IMG/VR virus record: IMGVR_UViG_2698536339_000002
DNA: 25,965 nucleotides
DNA from: a virus
Lineage: Duplodnaviria > Heunggongvirae > Uroviricota > Caudoviricetes
Reading direction: 5' to 3' (one strand)
The notes below the pieces were generated by a model, which saw only the letters and a list, made by a program, of their open reading frames with translations, did no database searches and was not told the origin of the DNA. The position numbers and the translations under genes are program-made. Below, one piece after another: positions 1,432 through 7,796 of the stretch. Position 1 is the first letter of the stretch; each line of letters starts with the position of its first letter.

Positions 1432-1788
1432 TTGTGGAGAAAGTTGATGCGTGATATGTATGAAGTATTGGACCGCTGGGGTGCATGGGCTGCAGCAGAT
1501 AACAGTGGTGTGGACTGGCAGCCTGTTGCTGCAGGGTTTAAAGGTTTACTACCTCATGGAAAGAAAACACGCCAACAATGCGATGATGATGAAGGAATCA
1601 TGATTGACAGCTGTGTTGCGCGATTGCGGAAATATAAGCCCGAAGAGTATGAGTTGGTTATTGCTCATTTTGTTATCGGCATCTCACTAAGAACTATTGC
1701 AAAGAAGCAGAAGTGTTCTGATGGGACAATAAGAAAAGAGTTGCAAACAGCTCTTGGTTTTCTGGATGGTGTGCTTTCAATGTTGTAA
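1432..1788 (+). CDS. Q: Late-gene antitermination protein Q (small QuuD/phage-82-type)
   Basis: 118-aa product with the pattern LDRWGAWAA ... GFKGLLP ... QCDDDEG ... CSDGTIRKELQTA, matching my recollection of small Q antiterminators (E. coli DLP12 QuuD). Lies upstream of the lysis cassette as expected. Confidence 0.8.
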   Translation: MWRKLMRDMYEVLDRWGAWAAADNSGVDWQPVAAGFKGLLPHGKKTRQQCDDDEGIMIDSCVARLRKYKPEEYELVIAHFVIGISLRTIAKKQKCSDGTIRKELQTALGFLDGVLSML

Positions 1789-1793
1789 TATTA

Positions 1794-1816
1794 GGGGGAA
1801 TTACCCCCCTTTTTTT
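1794..1816 (+). terminator. Rho-independent terminator hairpin immediately after Q (possibly bidirectional)
   Basis: GGGGG (1794-1798) / AATTA loop / CCCCCC (1804-1809) followed by a 7-T run (1810-1816). The stop codon of the convergent minus-strand gene (1801-1803) lies inside the hairpin. Confidence 0.55.
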
Positions 1817-2349
1817 CTCTGTTGTTTTAATAAAATTTTAATATTTTGTCTGATTATGATGAGGCAATGTAATAAAAGAAATACCGTTAGTATTGCAAGC
1901 CATACGCAAAATAAGCATGCATATAAATTAGTTGAAAGTCCAATAGTGAATTGTGCAATTGCTGTTGTGATAGAACATAATATTGATGTATTAATAAATG
2001 AGGATAAATTGTCTAAAGGTTTATAAAGTACACTATCATTGATTTTGTCAATAGGTATACCAGTGGCAATGCTATAAATTTCCTTATATTCCTGAGTTGC
2101 AAAAACCTTATCGCGTAAATTTATTATGACAAAGGTATGCAGGCTCAATAAAAATGAACCCACGGAAATAAAACCGGAGAAGAGATAGCCTCGTAAGTTT
2201 TTATGATAAAAATCAAAAAAGTTAACACTTACTTTAGGTGTGTTTCTGTACAATAGGTAAAGTGCAAGCAATGCCAGGATCGAGAATGCAAGCAGTGTAA
2301 TGTACTGATACCTCAATCTTTTATTTATTAGCCATTCATATAAAGGCAT
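1801..2349 (-). CDS. Hypothetical integral membrane protein (about 4 predicted TM helices), second gene of AT-rich cassette
   Basis: 182-aa ORF with four long hydrophobic stretches (approx. residues 16-34, 55-79, 117-138, 141-167) and a basic C-terminus (KQQRKKGG). Start overlaps the upstream gene's end by 14 nt. Very AT-rich codon usage, unlike the flanking phage genes. Confidence 0.6.
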   Translation of the reverse strand: MPLYEWLINKRLRYQYITLLAFSILALLALYLLYRNTPKVSVNFFDFYHKNLRGYLFSGFISVGSFLLSLHTFVIINLRDKVFATQEYKEIYSIATGIPIDKINDSVLYKPLDNLSSFINTSILCSITTAIAQFTIGLSTNLYACLFCVWLAILTVFLLLHCLIIIRQNIKILLKQQRKKGG

Positions 2350-3262
2350 TTTTATTCGTCCCGTTCAGCATTTCTTCTTTTATCATATCAAAAACAGGGT
2401 TTGTTGTATAATTATCGTTTGTCAATCCATTGACTTTATCGGCAATTATATCGAAATCGTATGTTTCAAAAAAAACAGGGCAGTTCATAAAATCAATGGT
2501 TTTTTCTATTCCTGCATGGTTTACTGCAATAACCTGTGCTTTAGCAACTCCACTCATAGAATTATAAATATTTGAAAGATTCTGAGATAGTTGTTGCACT
2601 TTTGTTCTGTCGCTAGAATTAAAATTCATATCTATTGTGGTGGTGTTAACAAATTGTTCAAGCGCAGTCATTGGCCCACCTTTAAAATCTATATAATTAA
2701 ATTTAAAGCTTGTGCTTTTAATCTCTTTGAATTGACATAAAACACTCTGAATGTTGTTTTTATTTGTCATAAGGCTGAAAGTCAGTCTTTCTTTGTATTT
2801 TTTATTTATTGCAGTTACTTCTTTTTGTTTTGGTTTATCTCCAAGTTTTTTTATTTCTTCTTTATTTTGATTTCTGATAAATTCATTACTTATTGTTTCT
2901 AAATGAGAAAAGAGAGTGTTCAGGCTGCATGAACCGTGGTGATACATATAGAGACCAGAAAGATTAGATTTTTTAATTAAGAAAAAGTTGAAATTAGCAA
3001 GTTTGTCACTTCCTTGAAGATCTTCAATTTTAAGCTGGAATTTACCATCAACAAATTGCGACTTACAGTTCTTTTTTTGGTTTCTGAATGTGACAACTAA
3101 TCCATAATAGAAATCATTCACATCCGAAATGAGAATTTTACGAGTATAGTCTGTGCGACTGTGTTCTCTGTTTGATGCGTTGATAAAAGCATTCATTACG
3201 TCAACGGTATTAATATTTTTGTTATTGTTATTTATTGTAAATCCTATGCTTCTAACTTTCAT
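2336..3262 (-). CDS. Hypothetical soluble protein (308 aa), first gene of AT-rich cassette; no recognisable motifs
   Basis: Long uninterrupted minus-strand ORF in a strongly AT-rich segment, rich in Asn/Lys/Ile. No Walker A, HxH, DPPY or other signature seen by eye. Overlaps the downstream membrane gene by 14 nt, suggesting an operon. Confidence 0.6.
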   Translation of the reverse strand: MKVRSIGFTINNNNKNINTVDVMNAFINASNREHSRTDYTRKILISDVNDFYYGLVVTFRNQKKNCKSQFVDGKFQLKIEDLQGSDKLANFNFFLIKKSNLSGLYMYHHGSCSLNTLFSHLETISNEFIRNQNKEEIKKLGDKPKQKEVTAINKKYKERLTFSLMTNKNNIQSVLCQFKEIKSTSFKFNYIDFKGGPMTALEQFVNTTTIDMNFNSSDRTKVQQLSQNLSNIYNSMSGVAKAQVIAVNHAGIEKTIDFMNCPVFFETYDFDIIADKVNGLTNDNYTTNPVFDMIKEEMLNGTNKNAFI

Positions 3263-3384
3263 GTGTATTCCAGGACCGACTAAAGATAGCGAGAATGGGG
3301 ACGCATAGTTTATAAAAATCCTAACGCGTACGCAAAAAGTATTATATCGTGTTAAGAGTGGTTACTTCGCCACACAACTTAAAC

Positions 3385-3405
3385 CCGCCGCTGAGCGGTT
3401 TTTTT
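3385..3405 (+). terminator. Candidate rho-independent terminator (possible tR'-like element)
   Basis: Short GC stem CCGC/GCGG with TGA loop (3388-3398) followed by T7 (3399-3405). The stem is short, so strength is uncertain. Confidence 0.35.
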
Positions 3406-3503
3406 GTACCTGTAAACCAGGTGCAGTACAGTAAACACGCTGGTGGTCGTGAATACTGGCTTTTTATCTTGCTGGCTTTTTAGACAAGAGTTATTGGTAT
3501 GTC

Positions 3504-3731
3504 ATGTTAACCAGAAGGGAAAAAGACATGCTAAAACAGCAAGATATGACAGAAACCGCCGCCGCAGTCCTTCATTTCTTACCTGCTGACAAGTGGGTAA
3601 CGCCACGCATGATGACGAGAACTACCGGAGTAAGCGAAGCCCGGTGCCAGTTAATACTGACTCAGTTAGTTCTGGCGGGTCTGGCGAAGGATAACGGCGG
3701 GTACGGGAATAAATTCAGACGCTGCCAGTAA
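3504..3731 (+). CDS. Small hypothetical protein, possible DNA-binding regulator
   Basis: 75-aa ORF. An internal ATG at 3528 has a better Shine-Dalgarno (AAGGGAAAAAGAC-ATG), so the true product may be 67 aa. Size and charge pattern resemble small winged-helix regulators, but this is not verified. Confidence 0.4.
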   Translation: MLTRREKDMLKQQDMTETAAAVLHFLPADKWVTPRMMTRTTGVSEARCQLILTQLVLAGLAKDNGGYGNKFRRCQ

Positions 3732-3881
3732 TGGCGGTTTCCTGCTGTGAAAATGGGCGGCTGGTGGGTGTTGGTAGCACCTGCCAGCCATTCGCTCATG
3801 CCTACTGGTCACAAGCGAACCACGGCCCACTGCTTTAGCGCAAAAGCAGAGTGAGCCTACCAGAGTTACGCTTACTGATCC

Positions 3882-4934
3882 ATGAAAAATACTGTAAAAA
3901 TAAACAGTGTTGATTTAATCAACGCTGATTGCCTGCATTTTATTCAGTCCCTGCCTGATGATTCCATTGACCTGATTGTTACCGATCCGCCGTACTTCAA
4001 GGTGAAACCCAACGGCTGGGACAATCAGTGGAAAGGGGACGAAGATTACCTTAAGTGGCTGGACCACTGTCTGGCCCAGTTCTGGCGGGTGTTAAAACCT
4101 GCCGGAAGCCTTTACCTGTTCTGTGGGCATCGCCTGGCATCTGATATTGAGATCATGATGCGTGAACGTTTCAACGTGCTTAACCATATCATCTGGGCGA
4201 AGCCGTCCGGACGTTGGAATGGGTGTAATAAAGAAAGTCTGCGCGCATATTTTCCTGCCACAGAGCGCGTTCTGTTTGCTGAACATTACCAGGGACCATA
4301 TCGCGGCAAAAGTGACGGCTATGCGGCAAAAGAAAGGGAACTCAAACAGCACATAATGGCACCGCTGATATCGTATTTCAGGGATGCTCGTGCCGAACTG
4401 GGTATAACGGCAAAACAAATTGCCGAAGCCACAGGTAAGAAAAATATGGTTTCCCACTGGTTTGGTGCCAGTCAGTGGCAGTTGCCGAATGAGGCTGACT
4501 ATCGGAAGTTACAGGCACTGTTTTCCCGTATAGCGGCAGAGAAGTTTCAGGAACAACAACTGGAACAACCACACCACCAGCTGGTGGCATCTTATGATTC
4601 ACTGAATCGTAAATATTCTGAATTGCTGGATGAGTTTAAATCTCTCCGGCGCTATTTCTCCGTATCAGTCTCCGTGCCTTATACCGATGTCTGGATGCAT
4701 AAACCCGTTCAGTTCTACCCGGGGAAACATCCGTGTGAGAAACCGGCGGATATGCTCAGGCAAATAATCAATGCCAGTAGTCGACCAGGTGATCTGGTTG
4801 CTGATTTTTTTATGGGATCCGGTTCCACAATAAAAGCAGCAATGGCGCTGGGGCGTCGGGCCTTAGGTGTTGAGCTTGAGTCAGAGCGGTTTAATCAGAC
4901 AGTGAAAGAGATAAACGAGCTGGTGGGGAAATAA
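3882..4934 (+). CDS. Orphan DNA methyltransferase, beta-class amino-MTase (N6-adenine or N4-cytosine)
   Basis: Catalytic motif IV DPPY (LIVTDPPYF) lies near the N-terminus and the AdoMet-binding motif I (DFFMGSGST) near the C-terminus. This IV-then-I order defines beta-class amino-methyltransferases. No adjacent restriction endonuclease candidate. Confidence 0.85.
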
Positions 4935-4940
4935 TCTGGT

Positions 4941-4965
4941 GGCCACGTCAGGTGGCCTTTTTATT
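4941..4965 (+). terminator. Rho-independent terminator between methyltransferase and holin
   Basis: GGCCAC (4941-4946) / GTCAG loop / GTGGCC (4952-4957) followed by TTTTTATTT. Confidence 0.5.
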
Positions 4966-5001: not shown

Positions 5002-5217
5002 ATGAAATCCATGGATAAGTTAACAACGGGTGTCGCCTATGGCACCTCAGCAGGTAGTGCCGGTTACTGGTTTTTACAGCTGCTCGATAAAGTCACGCCC
5101 TCACAGTGGGCAGCAATAGGTGTGCTGGGTAGCCTGGTATTTGGCCTGCTGACGTACCTGACAAACCTTTATTTCAAGATTAAAGAAGATAAGCGCAAGG
5201 CTGCGAGAGGTGAATAA
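5002..5217 (+). CDS. S: Class II pinholin (phage 21 S-like) with dual-start motif
   Basis: 71-aa product [26 protein letters not shown]...[17 protein letters not shown]...KRKAARGE with two TM segments. Met1-Lys2-Ser3-Met4 is a holin/antiholin dual-start arrangement. SD GAGGTGGGG lies upstream of ATG 5002. The 4939 start in the ORF track is probably an upstream over-extension. Confidence 0.8.
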
Positions 5218-5783
5218 TGCCTCCATCATTACGAAAAGCCGTTGCTGCTGCTATTGGTGGCGGAGCAATTGCTATAGCATCAGTGTTAATCACTGGCCCA
5301 AGTGGTGACGATGGCCTGGAAGGTGTCAGCTACATACCATACAAAGATATCGTTGGCGTATGGACTGTATGTCACGGACACACCGGAAAAGACATCATGC
5401 TCGGTAAAACGTATACCGAAGCAGAATGCAAAGCCCTCCTGAATAAAGACCTTGCCACGGTTGCCAGACAAATTAACCCGTACATCAAAGTCGATATACC
5501 GGAAACAACGCGCGGCGCTCTTTACTCGTTCGTCTACAACGTGGGTGCTGGCAATTTCAGAACATCGACGCTTCTTCGCAAAATAAACCAGGGCGATATC
5601 AAAGGCGCATGTGACCAGCTACGTCGCTGGATATACGCTGGCGGTAAGCAATGGAAAGGCCTGATGACTCGTCGTGAGATTGAGCGTGAAGTTTGCCTGT
5701 GGGCAGAAAAACCTCAGGTTCTTGGTGATGGGCTCGGGCCGCTTAACCCAGGCATTCCGGTATCAGTTCCGGGGGTATTCTGA
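5217..5783 (+). CDS. R: SAR endolysin (signal-anchor-release lysozyme, phage 21 R-like)
   Basis: N-terminal Gly/Ala-rich weakly hydrophobic SAR segment ([20 protein letters not shown]) followed by a lysozyme domain with Glu35, Asp44 and Thr50 at the expected catalytic spacing. Directly follows the pinholin. Confidence 0.85.
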
Positions 5784-6319
5784 TGAAACCCAGAAAAATT
5801 ACGATTGTTGCGGTTCTGCTGGTGGCTGTCGTAATCATTATTGCAGTGCTTAGCGTATTACTGGTTCGTAGCCGCTCAGCTCTTGAAACAGAACAGAGTG
5901 AGAATCGGGTATTACGTAATGATAACGCGCTGCAGGCGACGGTGATAACTACACAGGCTTTCAACTTCAATCGGTTTAACCAGATAGCAGAGAACGCCAA
6001 CCGCCTTAACTCGCTGATCGATGCCGGTACTGAGAAAACTGTCATCGAATACCGGGAGATTCTCCGACGTGAAAAGACCTGTGATCTGCCTGTTCCTGCT
6101 GATGTCGCTGGTGGGCTGCTCAAATACGCGTACCGTTTACGTGCCAGCGCAATGCACCCCGATACCGGGAACACTAACGCAACCGATGATAGTACCGCTG
6201 CCGCCAGCTCAATGACGTATTGCCAGGCCGTCCTCTGGATTGAACCTTTGCTGGCTGTTATTGAGAAGGGCAACAATAACCTGGCGGGTATACGAGAGAT
6301 TGAGAAGTTACGAAAATGA
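5783..6319 (+). CDS. Rz: i-spanin (Rz-like), type II inner-membrane protein
   Basis: N-terminal TM helix (ITIVAVLLVAVVIIIAVLSVLLV) then a charged, coiled-coil-like periplasmic domain. Start overlaps the endolysin stop (TGATG). The o-spanin gene is embedded within it. Confidence 0.75.
   Translation: MKPRKITIVAVLLVAVVIIIAVLSVLLVRSRSALETEQSENRVLRNDNALQATVITTQAFNFNRFNQIAENANRLNSLIDAGTEKTVIEYREILRREKTCDLPVPADVAGGLLKYAYRLRASAMHPDTGNTNATDDSTAAASSMTYCQAVLWIEPLLAVIEKGNNNLAGIREIEKLRK
6069..6215 (+). CDS. Rz1: o-spanin (Rz1-like) outer-membrane lipoprotein, embedded in +1 frame within Rz
   Basis: GTG start at 6069 preceded by GGGAGA. Signal peptide with lipobox LVGC, then a Pro-rich mature region (PAQCTPIPGTLTQPMIVPLPP). 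Fully nested in Rz in the +1 frame. Confidence 0.65.
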   Translation: MKRPVICLFLLMSLVGCSNTRTVYVPAQCTPIPGTLTQPMIVPLPPAQ

Positions 6320-6893: not shown

Positions 6894-7796
6894 ATGCCTA
6901 ATTGGAGCGACGTACTGGGCGAGATAACGGCTCTCGCCCATAAAAGTCCTATGGATGAGGTTCGCCGTAAATACTTATCTCAACTTTCGAATCATACTGG
7001 AAGAAATGTAATCACATATTACTCAGGGTGGTTACAGCATGGTGGTGCAGAAGTACGCCATCTTACTCAGATGACTGATGATGATAAGAACGGGTTGATG
7101 ACAGCCATCAATGGTTTAGATGTATCAAAAGGGTTGGATTTGATACTTCATACTCCAGGTGGTGATATTGCCGCTTTGGAATCAATCGGGCATTACTTAA
7201 GGTCGAAGTTTGGAACTAACATCAGAGCAATTGTTCCTATGATTTCAATGTCCTGCGGAACTATGCTTGCATGTTGTGCCAATGAAATCATCATGGGTAA
7301 ACAGTCCAACATTGGCCCAATTGATCCTCAGTTCAACGGTTTCTCCACCCATGCCATCATTGAAGAATGGAATCGTGCGCAGACGGAAATTTTTCAAAAT
7401 CCCGCAGCTGTTCAGATGTGGCAGTTCATTCTTCAAAAGCTAAACCCGACGATCATCGGCGAGTGTGAGAAAGCAATCAAATGGGCAAATGAGATTGTTA
7501 AGCATTGGCTTATGACAGGCATGTTTGATAATGATCCTGAGGCAGAATCAAAAGCAACACATGTTTGTTCAGAGTTAAACAACCATCACACAACCTATAC
7601 CCACTCGCGTCATATTCATTTTGATAAGGCGCAGAAAATTGGGTTGAATGTTACCGAACTTGAAAGTGATCAAGTACTTCAAGATTTGGTTTTGACTATA
7701 CATCACAGCTACATGCATTCTTTTGGTGGAGCACCACTGGCAAAAATCATTGAAAATCATAACGGTAACGCAATGATTTGGAATATCCAGTCTTAA
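6894..7796 (+). CDS. ClpP-fold serine peptidase (SDH / S49-like family), accessory (non-capsid) protease
   Basis: 300-aa product with the ClpP/crotonase-fold peptidase signature LHTPGGD and downstream PMISMSCGTMLACCANE (candidate nucleophile Ser). Lower G+C than the structural genes. Sits between spanins and cos, the slot lambda uses for bor. Confidence 0.65.
   Translation: MPNWSDVLGEITALAHKSPMDEVRRKYLSQLSNHTGRNVITYYSGWLQHGGAEVRHLTQMTDDDKNGLMTAINGLDVSKGLDLILHTPGGDIAALESIGHYLRSKFGTNIRAIVPMISMSCGTMLACCANEIIMGKQSNIGPIDPQFNGFSTHAIIEEWNRAQTEIFQNPAAVQMWQFILQKLNPTIIGECEKAIKWANEIVKHWLMTGMFDNDPEAESKATHVCSELNNHHTTYTHSRHIHFDKAQKIGLNVTELESDQVLQDLVLTIHHSYMHSFGGAPLAKIIENHNGNAMIWNIQS

Follow-up and report, generated by a model that had tools for sequence, protein, structure and literature searches.

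The 25,965-nucleotide (nt) stretch of DNA analysed here, called the window throughout and the source of all coordinates unless another locus is named, is the Q-to-tail region of a lambdoid Escherichia coli prophage in which a small open reading frame (ORF; 3528..3731, + strand) is followed by a gene for an orphan beta-class N6-adenine DNA methyltransferase (3882..4934, +, 350 amino acids, aa). The spacer between the two, at 3750..3881 on the + strand, is a conserved structured RNA leader of five helices which abuts the methyltransferase start codon, and this structure is strongly supported. By its sequence the enzyme belongs to the known M.EcoGII/M.EcoGI family and is not novel. The locus as a whole is, in our judgement, probably best explained by a non-specific methyltransferase made late in infection, a leader which controls its translation and an accessory winged-helix protein encoded by the small ORF. 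The structured RNA was absent from an earlier reading of the same DNA (the original prediction), and it is the part most worth following up.

A structured RNA leader abuts the methyltransferase gene

When five loci were aligned, this 150-nt spacer proved far more conserved than the main part of the small ORF, and it is retained at 72-90% nucleotide identity (blastn) in genera whose methyltransferase proteins are 58-82% identical, including loci which have no small ORF. The leader, of approximately 130 nt, is built from a three-way junction with near-invariant junction nucleotides, formed by the helices P1 (3754-3758/3825-3829), P2 (3759-3770/3778-3789) and P3 (3791-3796/3814-3819), and is completed by the hairpins P4 (3830-3836/3843-3849) and P5 (3850-3856/3870-3876). 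The arms of P2, the hairpin which comes after AAUGGGCG, are wholly replaced between genera with complementarity kept, the arm pairs being CUGGUGGGUG/CACCUGCCAG, CAGAAGAGUG/CACUGCUUCUG, CUGCGACCACG/CGUGGUCACAG and CCUGCCCC/GGGGCAGG.

A covariance model (R1) built on five hand-checked seeds scored the window at 98.6 bits (E 2.6e-25). Across 76 distinct sequences, 89.5% of cells pair, as compared with 74.1% in shuffled alignments and 25-41% when the partners are slid, and double-sided changes are found in 27 of the 32 pairs, with 301 double-change cells against 69 expected; none of 500 shuffles reached the observed values of pairing and covariation. P5 is paired in 78.8% of cells, with six of its seven pairs covarying. 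The same helices are present in the RNAfold prediction for 3748-3915 (-65.3 kcal/mol, z -5.16), and RNAalifold recovers P1, P2 and P4 unaided from the model alignment. Without structural realignment, MAFFT followed by RNAalifold recovered only P1 and part of P4, because the length of P2 varies, and a covariance model was therefore needed. G-U pairs far exceed A-C mismatches, and the folded species is therefore the + strand RNA.

It might be argued that the spacer is conserved merely as DNA, that is, as a homologous linker block for the exchange of lambdoid modules with no function as RNA. In four loci (L003-L006) the methyltransferase and spacer are 100% identical but the small-ORF allele is only 51% identical, which makes a mosaic boundary of the kind such a linker would produce, and chimeric small-ORF alleles also occur. 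However, a linker predicts no compensatory changes, whereas P2, P3, P4 and P5 pair despite change on both strands, as counted above; moreover, the P2 sequence is fully replaced between genera, the G-U pairs are strand-specific, and the block persists in genera with unrelated flanks. We give this explanation almost no credence.

The leader is like the cis-regulatory leaders catalogued in Rfam in that a multi-helix junction lies directly 5' of a start codon, but it matches none of their families. Neither the window nor five related loci gave a match to any of the 4227 families of Rfam 15 at gathering thresholds, and a search of 3263-3960 at E-values up to 10 returned chance-level matches only, with no similarity to riboswitches for S-adenosylmethionine (SAM) or S-adenosylhomocysteine (SAH) or to any other riboswitch. 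A full-text search of the literature covered, made with an exact string taken out of the leader, found no paper. The leader is thus a candidate new RNA family with no match in Rfam and no description in the papers searched, and it occurs in the best-studied bacterium. Three other proposals for the spacer were tried and rejected. A tRNA or a known RNA was sought and both ARAGORN and Rfam came back empty. As coding sequence, the frame which starts at the AUG of AUGGGCG runs for 3-75 aa with scattered stops, and there is therefore no conserved upstream ORF or peptide. A kissing contact between the P2 and P5 loops (UGGUAG:CUACCA) is paired in 76.1% of cases and in 75.6% of those in shuffles, and is unsupported. 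Genes for hypothetical proteins have been annotated over the leader in Yersinia phage P840 (ORF61, 2349-2516 of locus L010) and in phage PhiR46_1 (2276-2437 of locus L013); these are probably annotation artefacts, given the lack of a conserved reading frame.

In 792 kb of diverse loci the model found 85 full copies of the leader, and every copy examined shares its strand with an M.EcoGII-family methyltransferase gene or its operon and lies just 5' of it. Among the carriers are the Vibrio phage VHML, two Vibrio species, a Cellvibrionaceae genome and Catenovulum. Exactly one copy abuts the start codon in each of 80 IMG/VR loci picked solely by methyltransferase similarity, a sample confined to relatives of at least 80% identity which therefore informs linkage and not diversity. 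A regular-expression scan of IMG/VR gave the same picture, in that all element-like matches have a methyltransferase gene within about 21 nt downstream and the remainder are chance matches. In TL-2011c, a 933W-type phage, the leader has been lost along with the 5' part of the methyltransferase gene, and the relatives in Xenorhabdus and Photorhabdus have a reduced version only. As a candidate regulator, the leader is more tightly linked to the methyltransferase than is the small ORF.

The methyltransferase and its specificity

The start codon of the methyltransferase gene is at 3882, since an in-frame TGA at 3876-3878 excludes a longer N-terminus. Its product matches the Pfam family N6_N4_Mtase (PF01555) at an E-value of 2.2e-42 and 145.9 bits against a cut-off of 26.7, over residues 29-341 and positions 1-220 of the 221 in the profile. 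DPPY (catalytic motif IV) begins at residue 35 and FMGSGST (the SAM-binding FxGxG, motif I) at residue 310, which is the beta-class motif order, and in an alignment with M.EcoGII, SUPREM and five natural relatives the catalytic and SAM-binding motifs are invariant and intact. The original prediction, which had placed a beta-class enzyme and a small upstream ORF here, was right on both genes and on the class, and the inactivating mutations which it had allowed for in the catalytic motifs were looked for in this alignment and are absent.

Against the M.EcoGII reference, taken from Supplementary Table S1 of the SUPREM paper (PMC11551740), the protein is identical over its full length at 281 of 349 residues (81%, with 90% positives), so that 68 residues differ; the alignment has two gaps of one residue, both near the C-terminus, and the central domain is gap-free. 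Identity to the reconstructed ancestor Anc291 is 89% and to SUPREM 71%. The length (350 aa, 349 in M.EcoGII), the order of motifs and carriage by lambdoid prophages are shared with M.EcoGII and M.EcoGI, which come from prophages of E. coli O104:H4 C227-11, and the family as drawn in the M.EcoGII paper takes in methylases of enterobacterial phages, among them the phage cdtI protein, to which the window protein is 100% identical (PMC5778455). Solved beta-class enzymes (PDB 8urk/9c3u, M.RsrI, M.MboIIA and CcrM) have the Rossmann core in common with it and align with residues 9-115 and approximately 282-347 at E-values of 1e-15 to 3e-24, but none aligns with the central region of about 125 residues; matches by sequence in the copy of the PDB searched cover the catalytic core blocks alone, and it holds no solved structure of a close M.EcoGII relative. 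This central stretch, put at roughly 130 residues in the original prediction and tentatively taken there for the target-recognition domain, does correspond to the target-recognition and linker region, in keeping with the four-helix-bundle recognition domain at residues 160-237 which published AlphaFold modelling gave for M.EcoGII (PMC11551740).

According to these two papers, prophage-encoded M.EcoGII methylates adenine in any context in both DNA and RNA, is not expressed in the lysogen and slows the growth of cells which over-express it (PMC5778455), while M.EcoGII, Anc291 and SUPREM are all largely non-sequence-specific, both variants having been produced in that study and tested there for methylation (PMC11551740). 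Methylome studies of ST131 and O111 strains list relatives of M.EcoGI and M.EcoGII at 92-99% identity as 'nonspecific' and detected no activity in lysogens (PMC4659465, PMC6602927). From this kinship we infer that the window enzyme, too, methylates adenine at N6 in essentially any sequence context; activity and non-specificity were measured for M.EcoGII, whereas for the window protein they are read from its sequence. The published work, in the passages covered, treats the protein only, and those passages make no mention of an RNA leader, an upstream winged-helix gene or bracketing terminators.

A different view would hold that the enzyme is a sequence-specific orphan methyltransferase with a motif of its own and a role in epigenetic regulation in the lysogen. 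The 19% of residues at which it departs from M.EcoGII include some in the central domain, and its beta-class relatives RsrI, MboII and CcrM do recognise specific sequences. However, the central domain aligns with that of M.EcoGII without a gap, three enzymes at 71-89% identity (M.EcoGII, Anc291 and SUPREM) are reported by the SUPREM authors to be largely non-specific, close relatives give no methylation signal in lysogens, and the gene lies behind a terminator in a late operon, so that sequence specificity is very unlikely. The original prediction had named both an anti-restriction and an epigenetic function; the former agrees with the role published for the M.EcoGII family (PMC5778455), whereas the latter is improbable in view of the missing methylation signal in lysogens. 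It had also looked to comparison with REBASE for a specificity, but the family is non-specific, and no recognition motif can therefore be assigned in this way. Likewise, the failure to see a new methylated motif in lysogens, which it had regarded as refuting an active enzyme, would wrongly reject one, because the family is silent in lysogens (PMC5778455, PMC4659465, PMC6602927).

Translation initiation and the winged-helix protein

The methyltransferase AUG has no usable Shine-Dalgarno sequence. Where the leader abuts a methyltransferase gene, the energies of the anti-Shine-Dalgarno duplex are between -0.4 and -4.8 kcal/mol, as against -5.6 to -10.2 kcal/mol in Vibrio relatives in which the leader is absent or non-adjacent. 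P5 ends 5 nt before the AUG, and a potential hairpin, P6, appears in the minimum-free-energy fold within codons 3-10 (3888..3911, +; AAUACUGU/ACAGUGUU), which leaves approximately 11 unpaired nt around the AUG between P5 and P6. The Thr ACU and Ser AGU codons at the core of P6 hardly vary in most of 68 distinct N-terminal sequences; as a hairpin on the 3' side of the start codon, P6 is suggestive only. In two Vibrio loci (L037, 2352-2468, and L040) the leader instead abuts a 38-aa ORF with four cysteines which resembles the Com zinc ribbon (PF10122, E 1.6e-4, 21.5 bits, just below the cut-off of 22.9), and this ORF is followed by a strong Shine-Dalgarno sequence and then by a methyltransferase gene whose product is 56-58% identical. 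In L037 there is also an unrelated ORF of 83 aa on the 5' side of the preceding terminator, which has no Pfam match and looks like a winged helix by eye only.

Com is the translational activator of the harmful mom gene of phage Mu (PMC6483171), and Com homologues precede non-specific alpha-class adenine methyltransferases of Mu-like prophages (PMC3299994). The pattern of Shine-Dalgarno sequences and the Com-like ORF of Vibrio lead us, by analogy with com-mom of Mu, to infer that the leader regulates how a toxic enzyme is translated, by setting or switching initiation; and as over-expression of M.EcoGII slows growth (PMC5778455), a second layer of control probably acts on the mRNA. The parallel with Mu, and with Hia5, Hin1523 and Nma1821 (PMC6483171; PMC3299994), lies in a harmful broad-spectrum DNA-modifying enzyme made late, in a small upstream ORF together with structured mRNA at the start of translation, and, in Mu, in control which is post-transcriptional. 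It is not complete, however. The window lacks a Com zinc ribbon, its upstream protein being a winged helix, and Com-like ORFs are confined to the Vibrio relatives; the RNA is a multi-helix element of 130 nt and not one of the short hairpins targeted by Com; and the enzyme is of the beta class, being neither Mom nor an alpha-class methyltransferase. Translational control here is thus proposed on the strength of the analogy.

The leader could instead act away from translation, as an element of RNA stability or processing, as an aid to reading through a terminator, or as a small RNA working in trans. In most loci it begins a few bases after a terminator and its module is bracketed by terminators, short transcripts from the late promoter of Stx phages do act as regulators in trans (PMC7547250), and the Vibrio element lies about 150 nt from the methyltransferase gene. 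However, the 3' end of the enteric leader is fixed at the start codon by the position of P5, no terminator follows it which could release a discrete small RNA, the 3' end of the Vibrio leader is again at a start codon, that of the Com-like ORF, and the start codons which the leader abuts have little or no Shine-Dalgarno sequence. A role apart from translation is accordingly unlikely. Homology of the pR'-tR' region to StxS was considered and set aside, StxS being a transcript of 258 nt which is processed to 74 nt and belongs to a different late-promoter region.

If the leader does control translation, it possibly toggles between two mutually exclusive foldings. Many members have a minimum-free-energy fold in which the proximal GCUCAU, and not the distal GCCCA, is the partner of AUGGGC, and in which GGUCA is joined to the UGAUC directly 5' of the AUG; in the window these possible alternatives would join 3753-3758 with 3794-3799 and 3807-3811 with 3876-3880, and they are 86-90% complementary. 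From here it is a short step to a metabolite or self-sensing riboswitch, which would respond to SAM or SAH or to methylation by its own RNA-active enzyme, and flip between the P1/P3/P5 fold and the fold with pairing before the AUG. The three-way junction with its near-invariant nucleotides, the highly complementary and mutually exclusive pairings, and an enzyme which consumes SAM and whose relative M.EcoGII methylates RNA (PMC5778455) would all suit such a device. However, the leader has no likeness to any riboswitch in Rfam, the pairing before the AUG is missing in several clades (e.g., L010, L202 and L146), the ligand is hypothetical, and the case for the alternative helices comes chiefly from conservation and one-sided changes, with little true covariation, for which reason the two-state switch is weakly supported. 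We regard a two-state leader as possible and a riboswitch as quite unlikely. A broader conjecture, to which we attach a similarly low probability, is that the leader represents a new class of bistable RNA switches dedicated to promiscuous phage methyltransferases, which sense SAM/SAH or their own N6-adenine methylation, with winged-helix and Com-like proteins as interchangeable co-factors; were this so, sensing of self-methylation would amount to a self-limiting 'epitranscriptomic' feedback which caps the output of a toxic enzyme.

The small ORF could start at 3504 (75 aa) or at 3528 (67 aa). RefSeq annotates the 67-aa form (204 nt), and a purine-rich AGAAGGGA lies a few bases 5' of the start at 3528, with none before 3504. 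It exists in 61 distinct nucleotide versions of 62-67 codons, and a ratio of nonsynonymous to synonymous polymorphism (pN/pS) of 0.15-0.21 across three length classes marks it as a genuine gene under purifying selection. The protein has a calculated isoelectric point of 9.6 and two cysteines, matches phrog_331 (E 3e-26) and has 150 homologues, some of which are named as TrmB family regulators. AlphaFold2 predicts (pLDDT 87.2, pTM 0.76) three helices (residues 4-17, 26-33 and 37-49) and two strands (53-55 and 63-65) in the order H-H-H-strand-strand, that is, a three-helix bundle with a beta-hairpin wing, and the top Foldseek matches in the PDB, at a probability of approximately 1.0, are TrmBL2, the N-domains of IclR, Z-alpha (TM 0.81) and the RNA-binding winged helix of SelB. 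The basic protein with possible DNA binding of the original prediction, which had looked to fold prediction for an answer, therefore acquires a predicted winged-helix fold. Searches with the protein by PADLOC, Pfam, NCBIfam and PDB sequence gave nothing above any curated cut-off, the best Pfam matches being to TrmB, DprA_WH and MarR at E-values of 0.045-0.12; of 24 homologues, 20 have some match to TrmB (best E 2.5e-4) and 16 to DprA_WH. The model points to a free-standing winged helix, which places the protein in a fold class and not in a named family.

All alleles of the gene have in common a near-invariant N-terminus (MLKQQDMTETA) and a near-invariant third helix (RCQLILTQLV-AGL). There are two main alleles, about 51% identical, plus chimeras (window; loci L003-L009 and L012; proteins P0081-P0086); the window has allele A, and both alleles precede a 100%-identical methyltransferase. 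The chimeric alleles join the N-terminal half of allele B to the C-terminus of allele A. The first 32 nt of the ORF are nearly invariant as DNA, as is the stretch of 122 nt which precedes them, and this, with the chimeras, points to recombination breakpoints within the small ORF or to a constraint at the RNA level on its 5' end. The 122-nt stretch (3406..3527, +) is a conserved leader of the small ORF in its own right, with a terminator-like hairpin at 3439-3460 followed by a T-run and with a direct repeat, CTGGCTTTTTA, present twice; it is 85-99% identical in nucleotide sequence across E. coli, Salmonella and Stx phage loci, was detected exclusively in loci with the small ORF, and is too alike in the sequences sampled for a test of covariation. 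With the terminator at 3385-3406, the hairpin at 3439-3460 places the small ORF behind two terminators.

The small ORF precedes the methyltransferase gene in E. coli, Salmonella, Citrobacter, Scandinavium, Proteus, Providencia, Xenorhabdus and Photorhabdus, and is absent from the relatives in Kosakonia, Enterobacter, Rosenbergiella, Ewingella, Yersinia, Tatumella and Vibrio; in the IMG/VR loci chosen by methyltransferase similarity it is present in 75 of 80 and mostly ends 154 nt before the methyltransferase AUG. It is therefore a frequent but dispensable accessory. Against this, one could see in the winged-helix protein the main regulator of the methyltransferase, an activator akin to C proteins or Com, with the RNA structure as its binding site. 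Its nearly constant distance from the AUG, its presence in eight enteric genera, a third helix which is invariant where the rest varies, and structural neighbours of which some bind RNA (the SelB winged helix and Z-alpha) all speak for this view. However, the leader and methyltransferase are kept without the ORF in many relatives, namely in the genera just listed as lacking it, other than Vibrio, and in three IMG/VR loci; Xenorhabdus has the ORF without a full leader, one and the same methyltransferase and leader are found with either of two alleles at 51% identity, and the protein matches neither the C-protein nor the Com families. The C proteins of Type II restriction-modification systems are likewise small DNA-binding proteins encoded just 5' of a modification or restriction gene and are thought to time its expression, but they are Xre-type helix-turn-helix proteins which act on C-box operators and accompany a restriction enzyme, whereas here the fold is a winged helix, no restriction enzyme is present and PADLOC finds no C protein. 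A main regulator of this kind is doubtful, if with a real chance of being right; judging by the modelled fold, the 67-aa protein is most likely a nucleic-acid-binding modulator of the module and not an essential partner.

Late-operon setting and wider significance

The conserved module starts at an intrinsic terminator (3385..3406, +; CCGCCGCTGAGCGG and a T-run in the terminator scan), which we take to be the tR'-type terminator of the short transcript from the late promoter; it aligns and is conserved in Stx2a phage, Ayreon, Salmonella and E. coli loci with different Q genes. A second intrinsic terminator, found by the same scan in the gap between the methyltransferase and holin genes (4941..4965, +; GGCCACGTCAGGTGGCC and TTTTTATTTC), has its equivalent annotated in the record of phage Ayreon, and the two bracket the methyltransferase module. 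Upstream lie a DUF968/HNH gene (434-1429) and a Q-family late antiterminator gene (1432..1788, +; phrog_79, anti-termination protein Q-like, E 7.7e-49), the RefSeq homologue of which is annotated as an antiterminator Q family protein, with a terminator-like hairpin directly after it (1793-1810, terminator scan). Downstream is a lysis cassette (5002..6319, +) of a P21-type holin with an MKSM dual start (PF04971, E 3.6e-35), a lysozyme (PF00959, E 2.7e-45) and an Rz-like gene, named essD, rrrD and lysis protein by RefSeq in a 99.7%-identical locus, and beyond it are terminase, head and tail genes. An ORF of 300 aa (6894-7796) with a ClpP-like serine protease domain of the SDH type (PF01972, E 8e-23) is placed after the lysis cassette and before the small terminase gene, an unusual spot for it in a lambda-like late region.

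Between the Q gene and the module, two overlapping AT-rich genes of unknown function are found on the minus strand (1801-3262; 182 aa and 308 aa, Asn-rich), with a GC content of 29-37% as against about 50% around them. They have no match in Pfam, NCBIfam, PADLOC or the PDB and match only unnamed PHROG families (phrog_2802, unknown function). In other E. coli prophages with the same flanks their place is held by a gene for a 483-aa AAA_15/AAA_21 ATPase, and the slot between Q and the late terminator looks like a hotspot for cargo or defence genes.

No candidate for a cognate restriction endonuclease gene was found next to the methyltransferase, whose neighbours are the winged-helix ORF and the holin, and the methyltransferase is the sole PADLOC hit in the window. 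An identical methyltransferase stands beside differing cargo, be it the 483-aa ATPase, the 182-aa and 308-aa pair or the other small ORFs of Ayreon, and in some loci this pair is missing beside it altogether; therefore none of these neighbours is a cognate restriction enzyme and the gene is an orphan, as had been supposed in the original prediction. In Salmonella an 82%-identical methyltransferase is found beside a different lysis cassette. The locus, taken as 1.7 kb, has matches in 1645 of 5426 complete E. coli genomes, and for 1062 of these a single match covers at least 80% of it; it is also present in the phages mEp460, cdtI, SfV and Ayreon and in Stx2c- and Stx2a-converting phages.

The order Q, terminator, small ORF, methyltransferase, terminator and holin is shared by the window, Ayreon and E. 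coli SBF22, while in the Stx2a phage EH2246 it is Q, small ORF, methylase, three tRNAs and stx2AB; the slot of the module, between Q/tR' and the lysis genes, is the one which holds stx in Stx phages. EH2246 also has, just downstream of stx2B, a small RNA of the Rfam family STnc100 (153.8 bits; L012, 6257-6472) which is absent from the window. In 933W-type Stx2a phages (TL-2011c, at 2501-2605 of L213, ArgO145 and many more) the last 35 codons of the methyltransferase gene are kept between Q and stx2, and the stx region of these phages therefore appears to derive from a locus which once had the full module.

The bracketing terminators and the position between Q and the lysis genes suggest Q-dependent late expression. 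In the lysogen, transcripts should end before the module, which would be expressed solely when RNA polymerase modified by Q reads through, late in infection; the enzyme would then hypermethylate replicating phage DNA, which may allow the progeny to withstand, in their next host, many adenine-sensitive restriction systems. This last step is proposed from the biochemistry of the family and the genetic position, and hypermethylation of phage DNA late in infection, with silence in lysogens, is the most likely use of the enzyme.

Several points weigh against the combined reading of the locus and call for some caution. A scan for consensus promoters on the + strand of 3263-3385 gave nothing convincing for the late promoter. 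The alignment behind the covariation statistics was itself fitted to the model structure, P1 hardly varies, with two compensatory cases only, and two positions of P3 are mostly unpaired. The relatives in Xenorhabdus and Photorhabdus, which lack a full leader, also lack a Shine-Dalgarno sequence, and the inverse relation between the two is therefore not clean. RNA stability, processing or termination are alternatives to translation as roles of the leader, any physical link of the winged-helix protein to the RNA or the methyltransferase is hypothetical, and the 19% divergence from M.EcoGII could in principle alter the behaviour of this particular protein.

Relatives of M.EcoGII, an enzyme in wide use as a reagent, match approximately 30% of complete E. 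coli genomes, including Stx phages in which the module is directly upstream of stx. Surveys of lysogen methylomes cannot judge the activity of genes of this family. Restraint of the enzyme has so far been described just as absence of expression in lysogens; the leader would explain why the native gene has no ribosome-binding site of its own, and offers a concrete, mutable handle on this control. More widely, the locus suggests that the post-transcriptional gating of promiscuous DNA-modifying enzymes, first seen in com-mom of Mu, may be a general phage strategy which has been put together from different parts.

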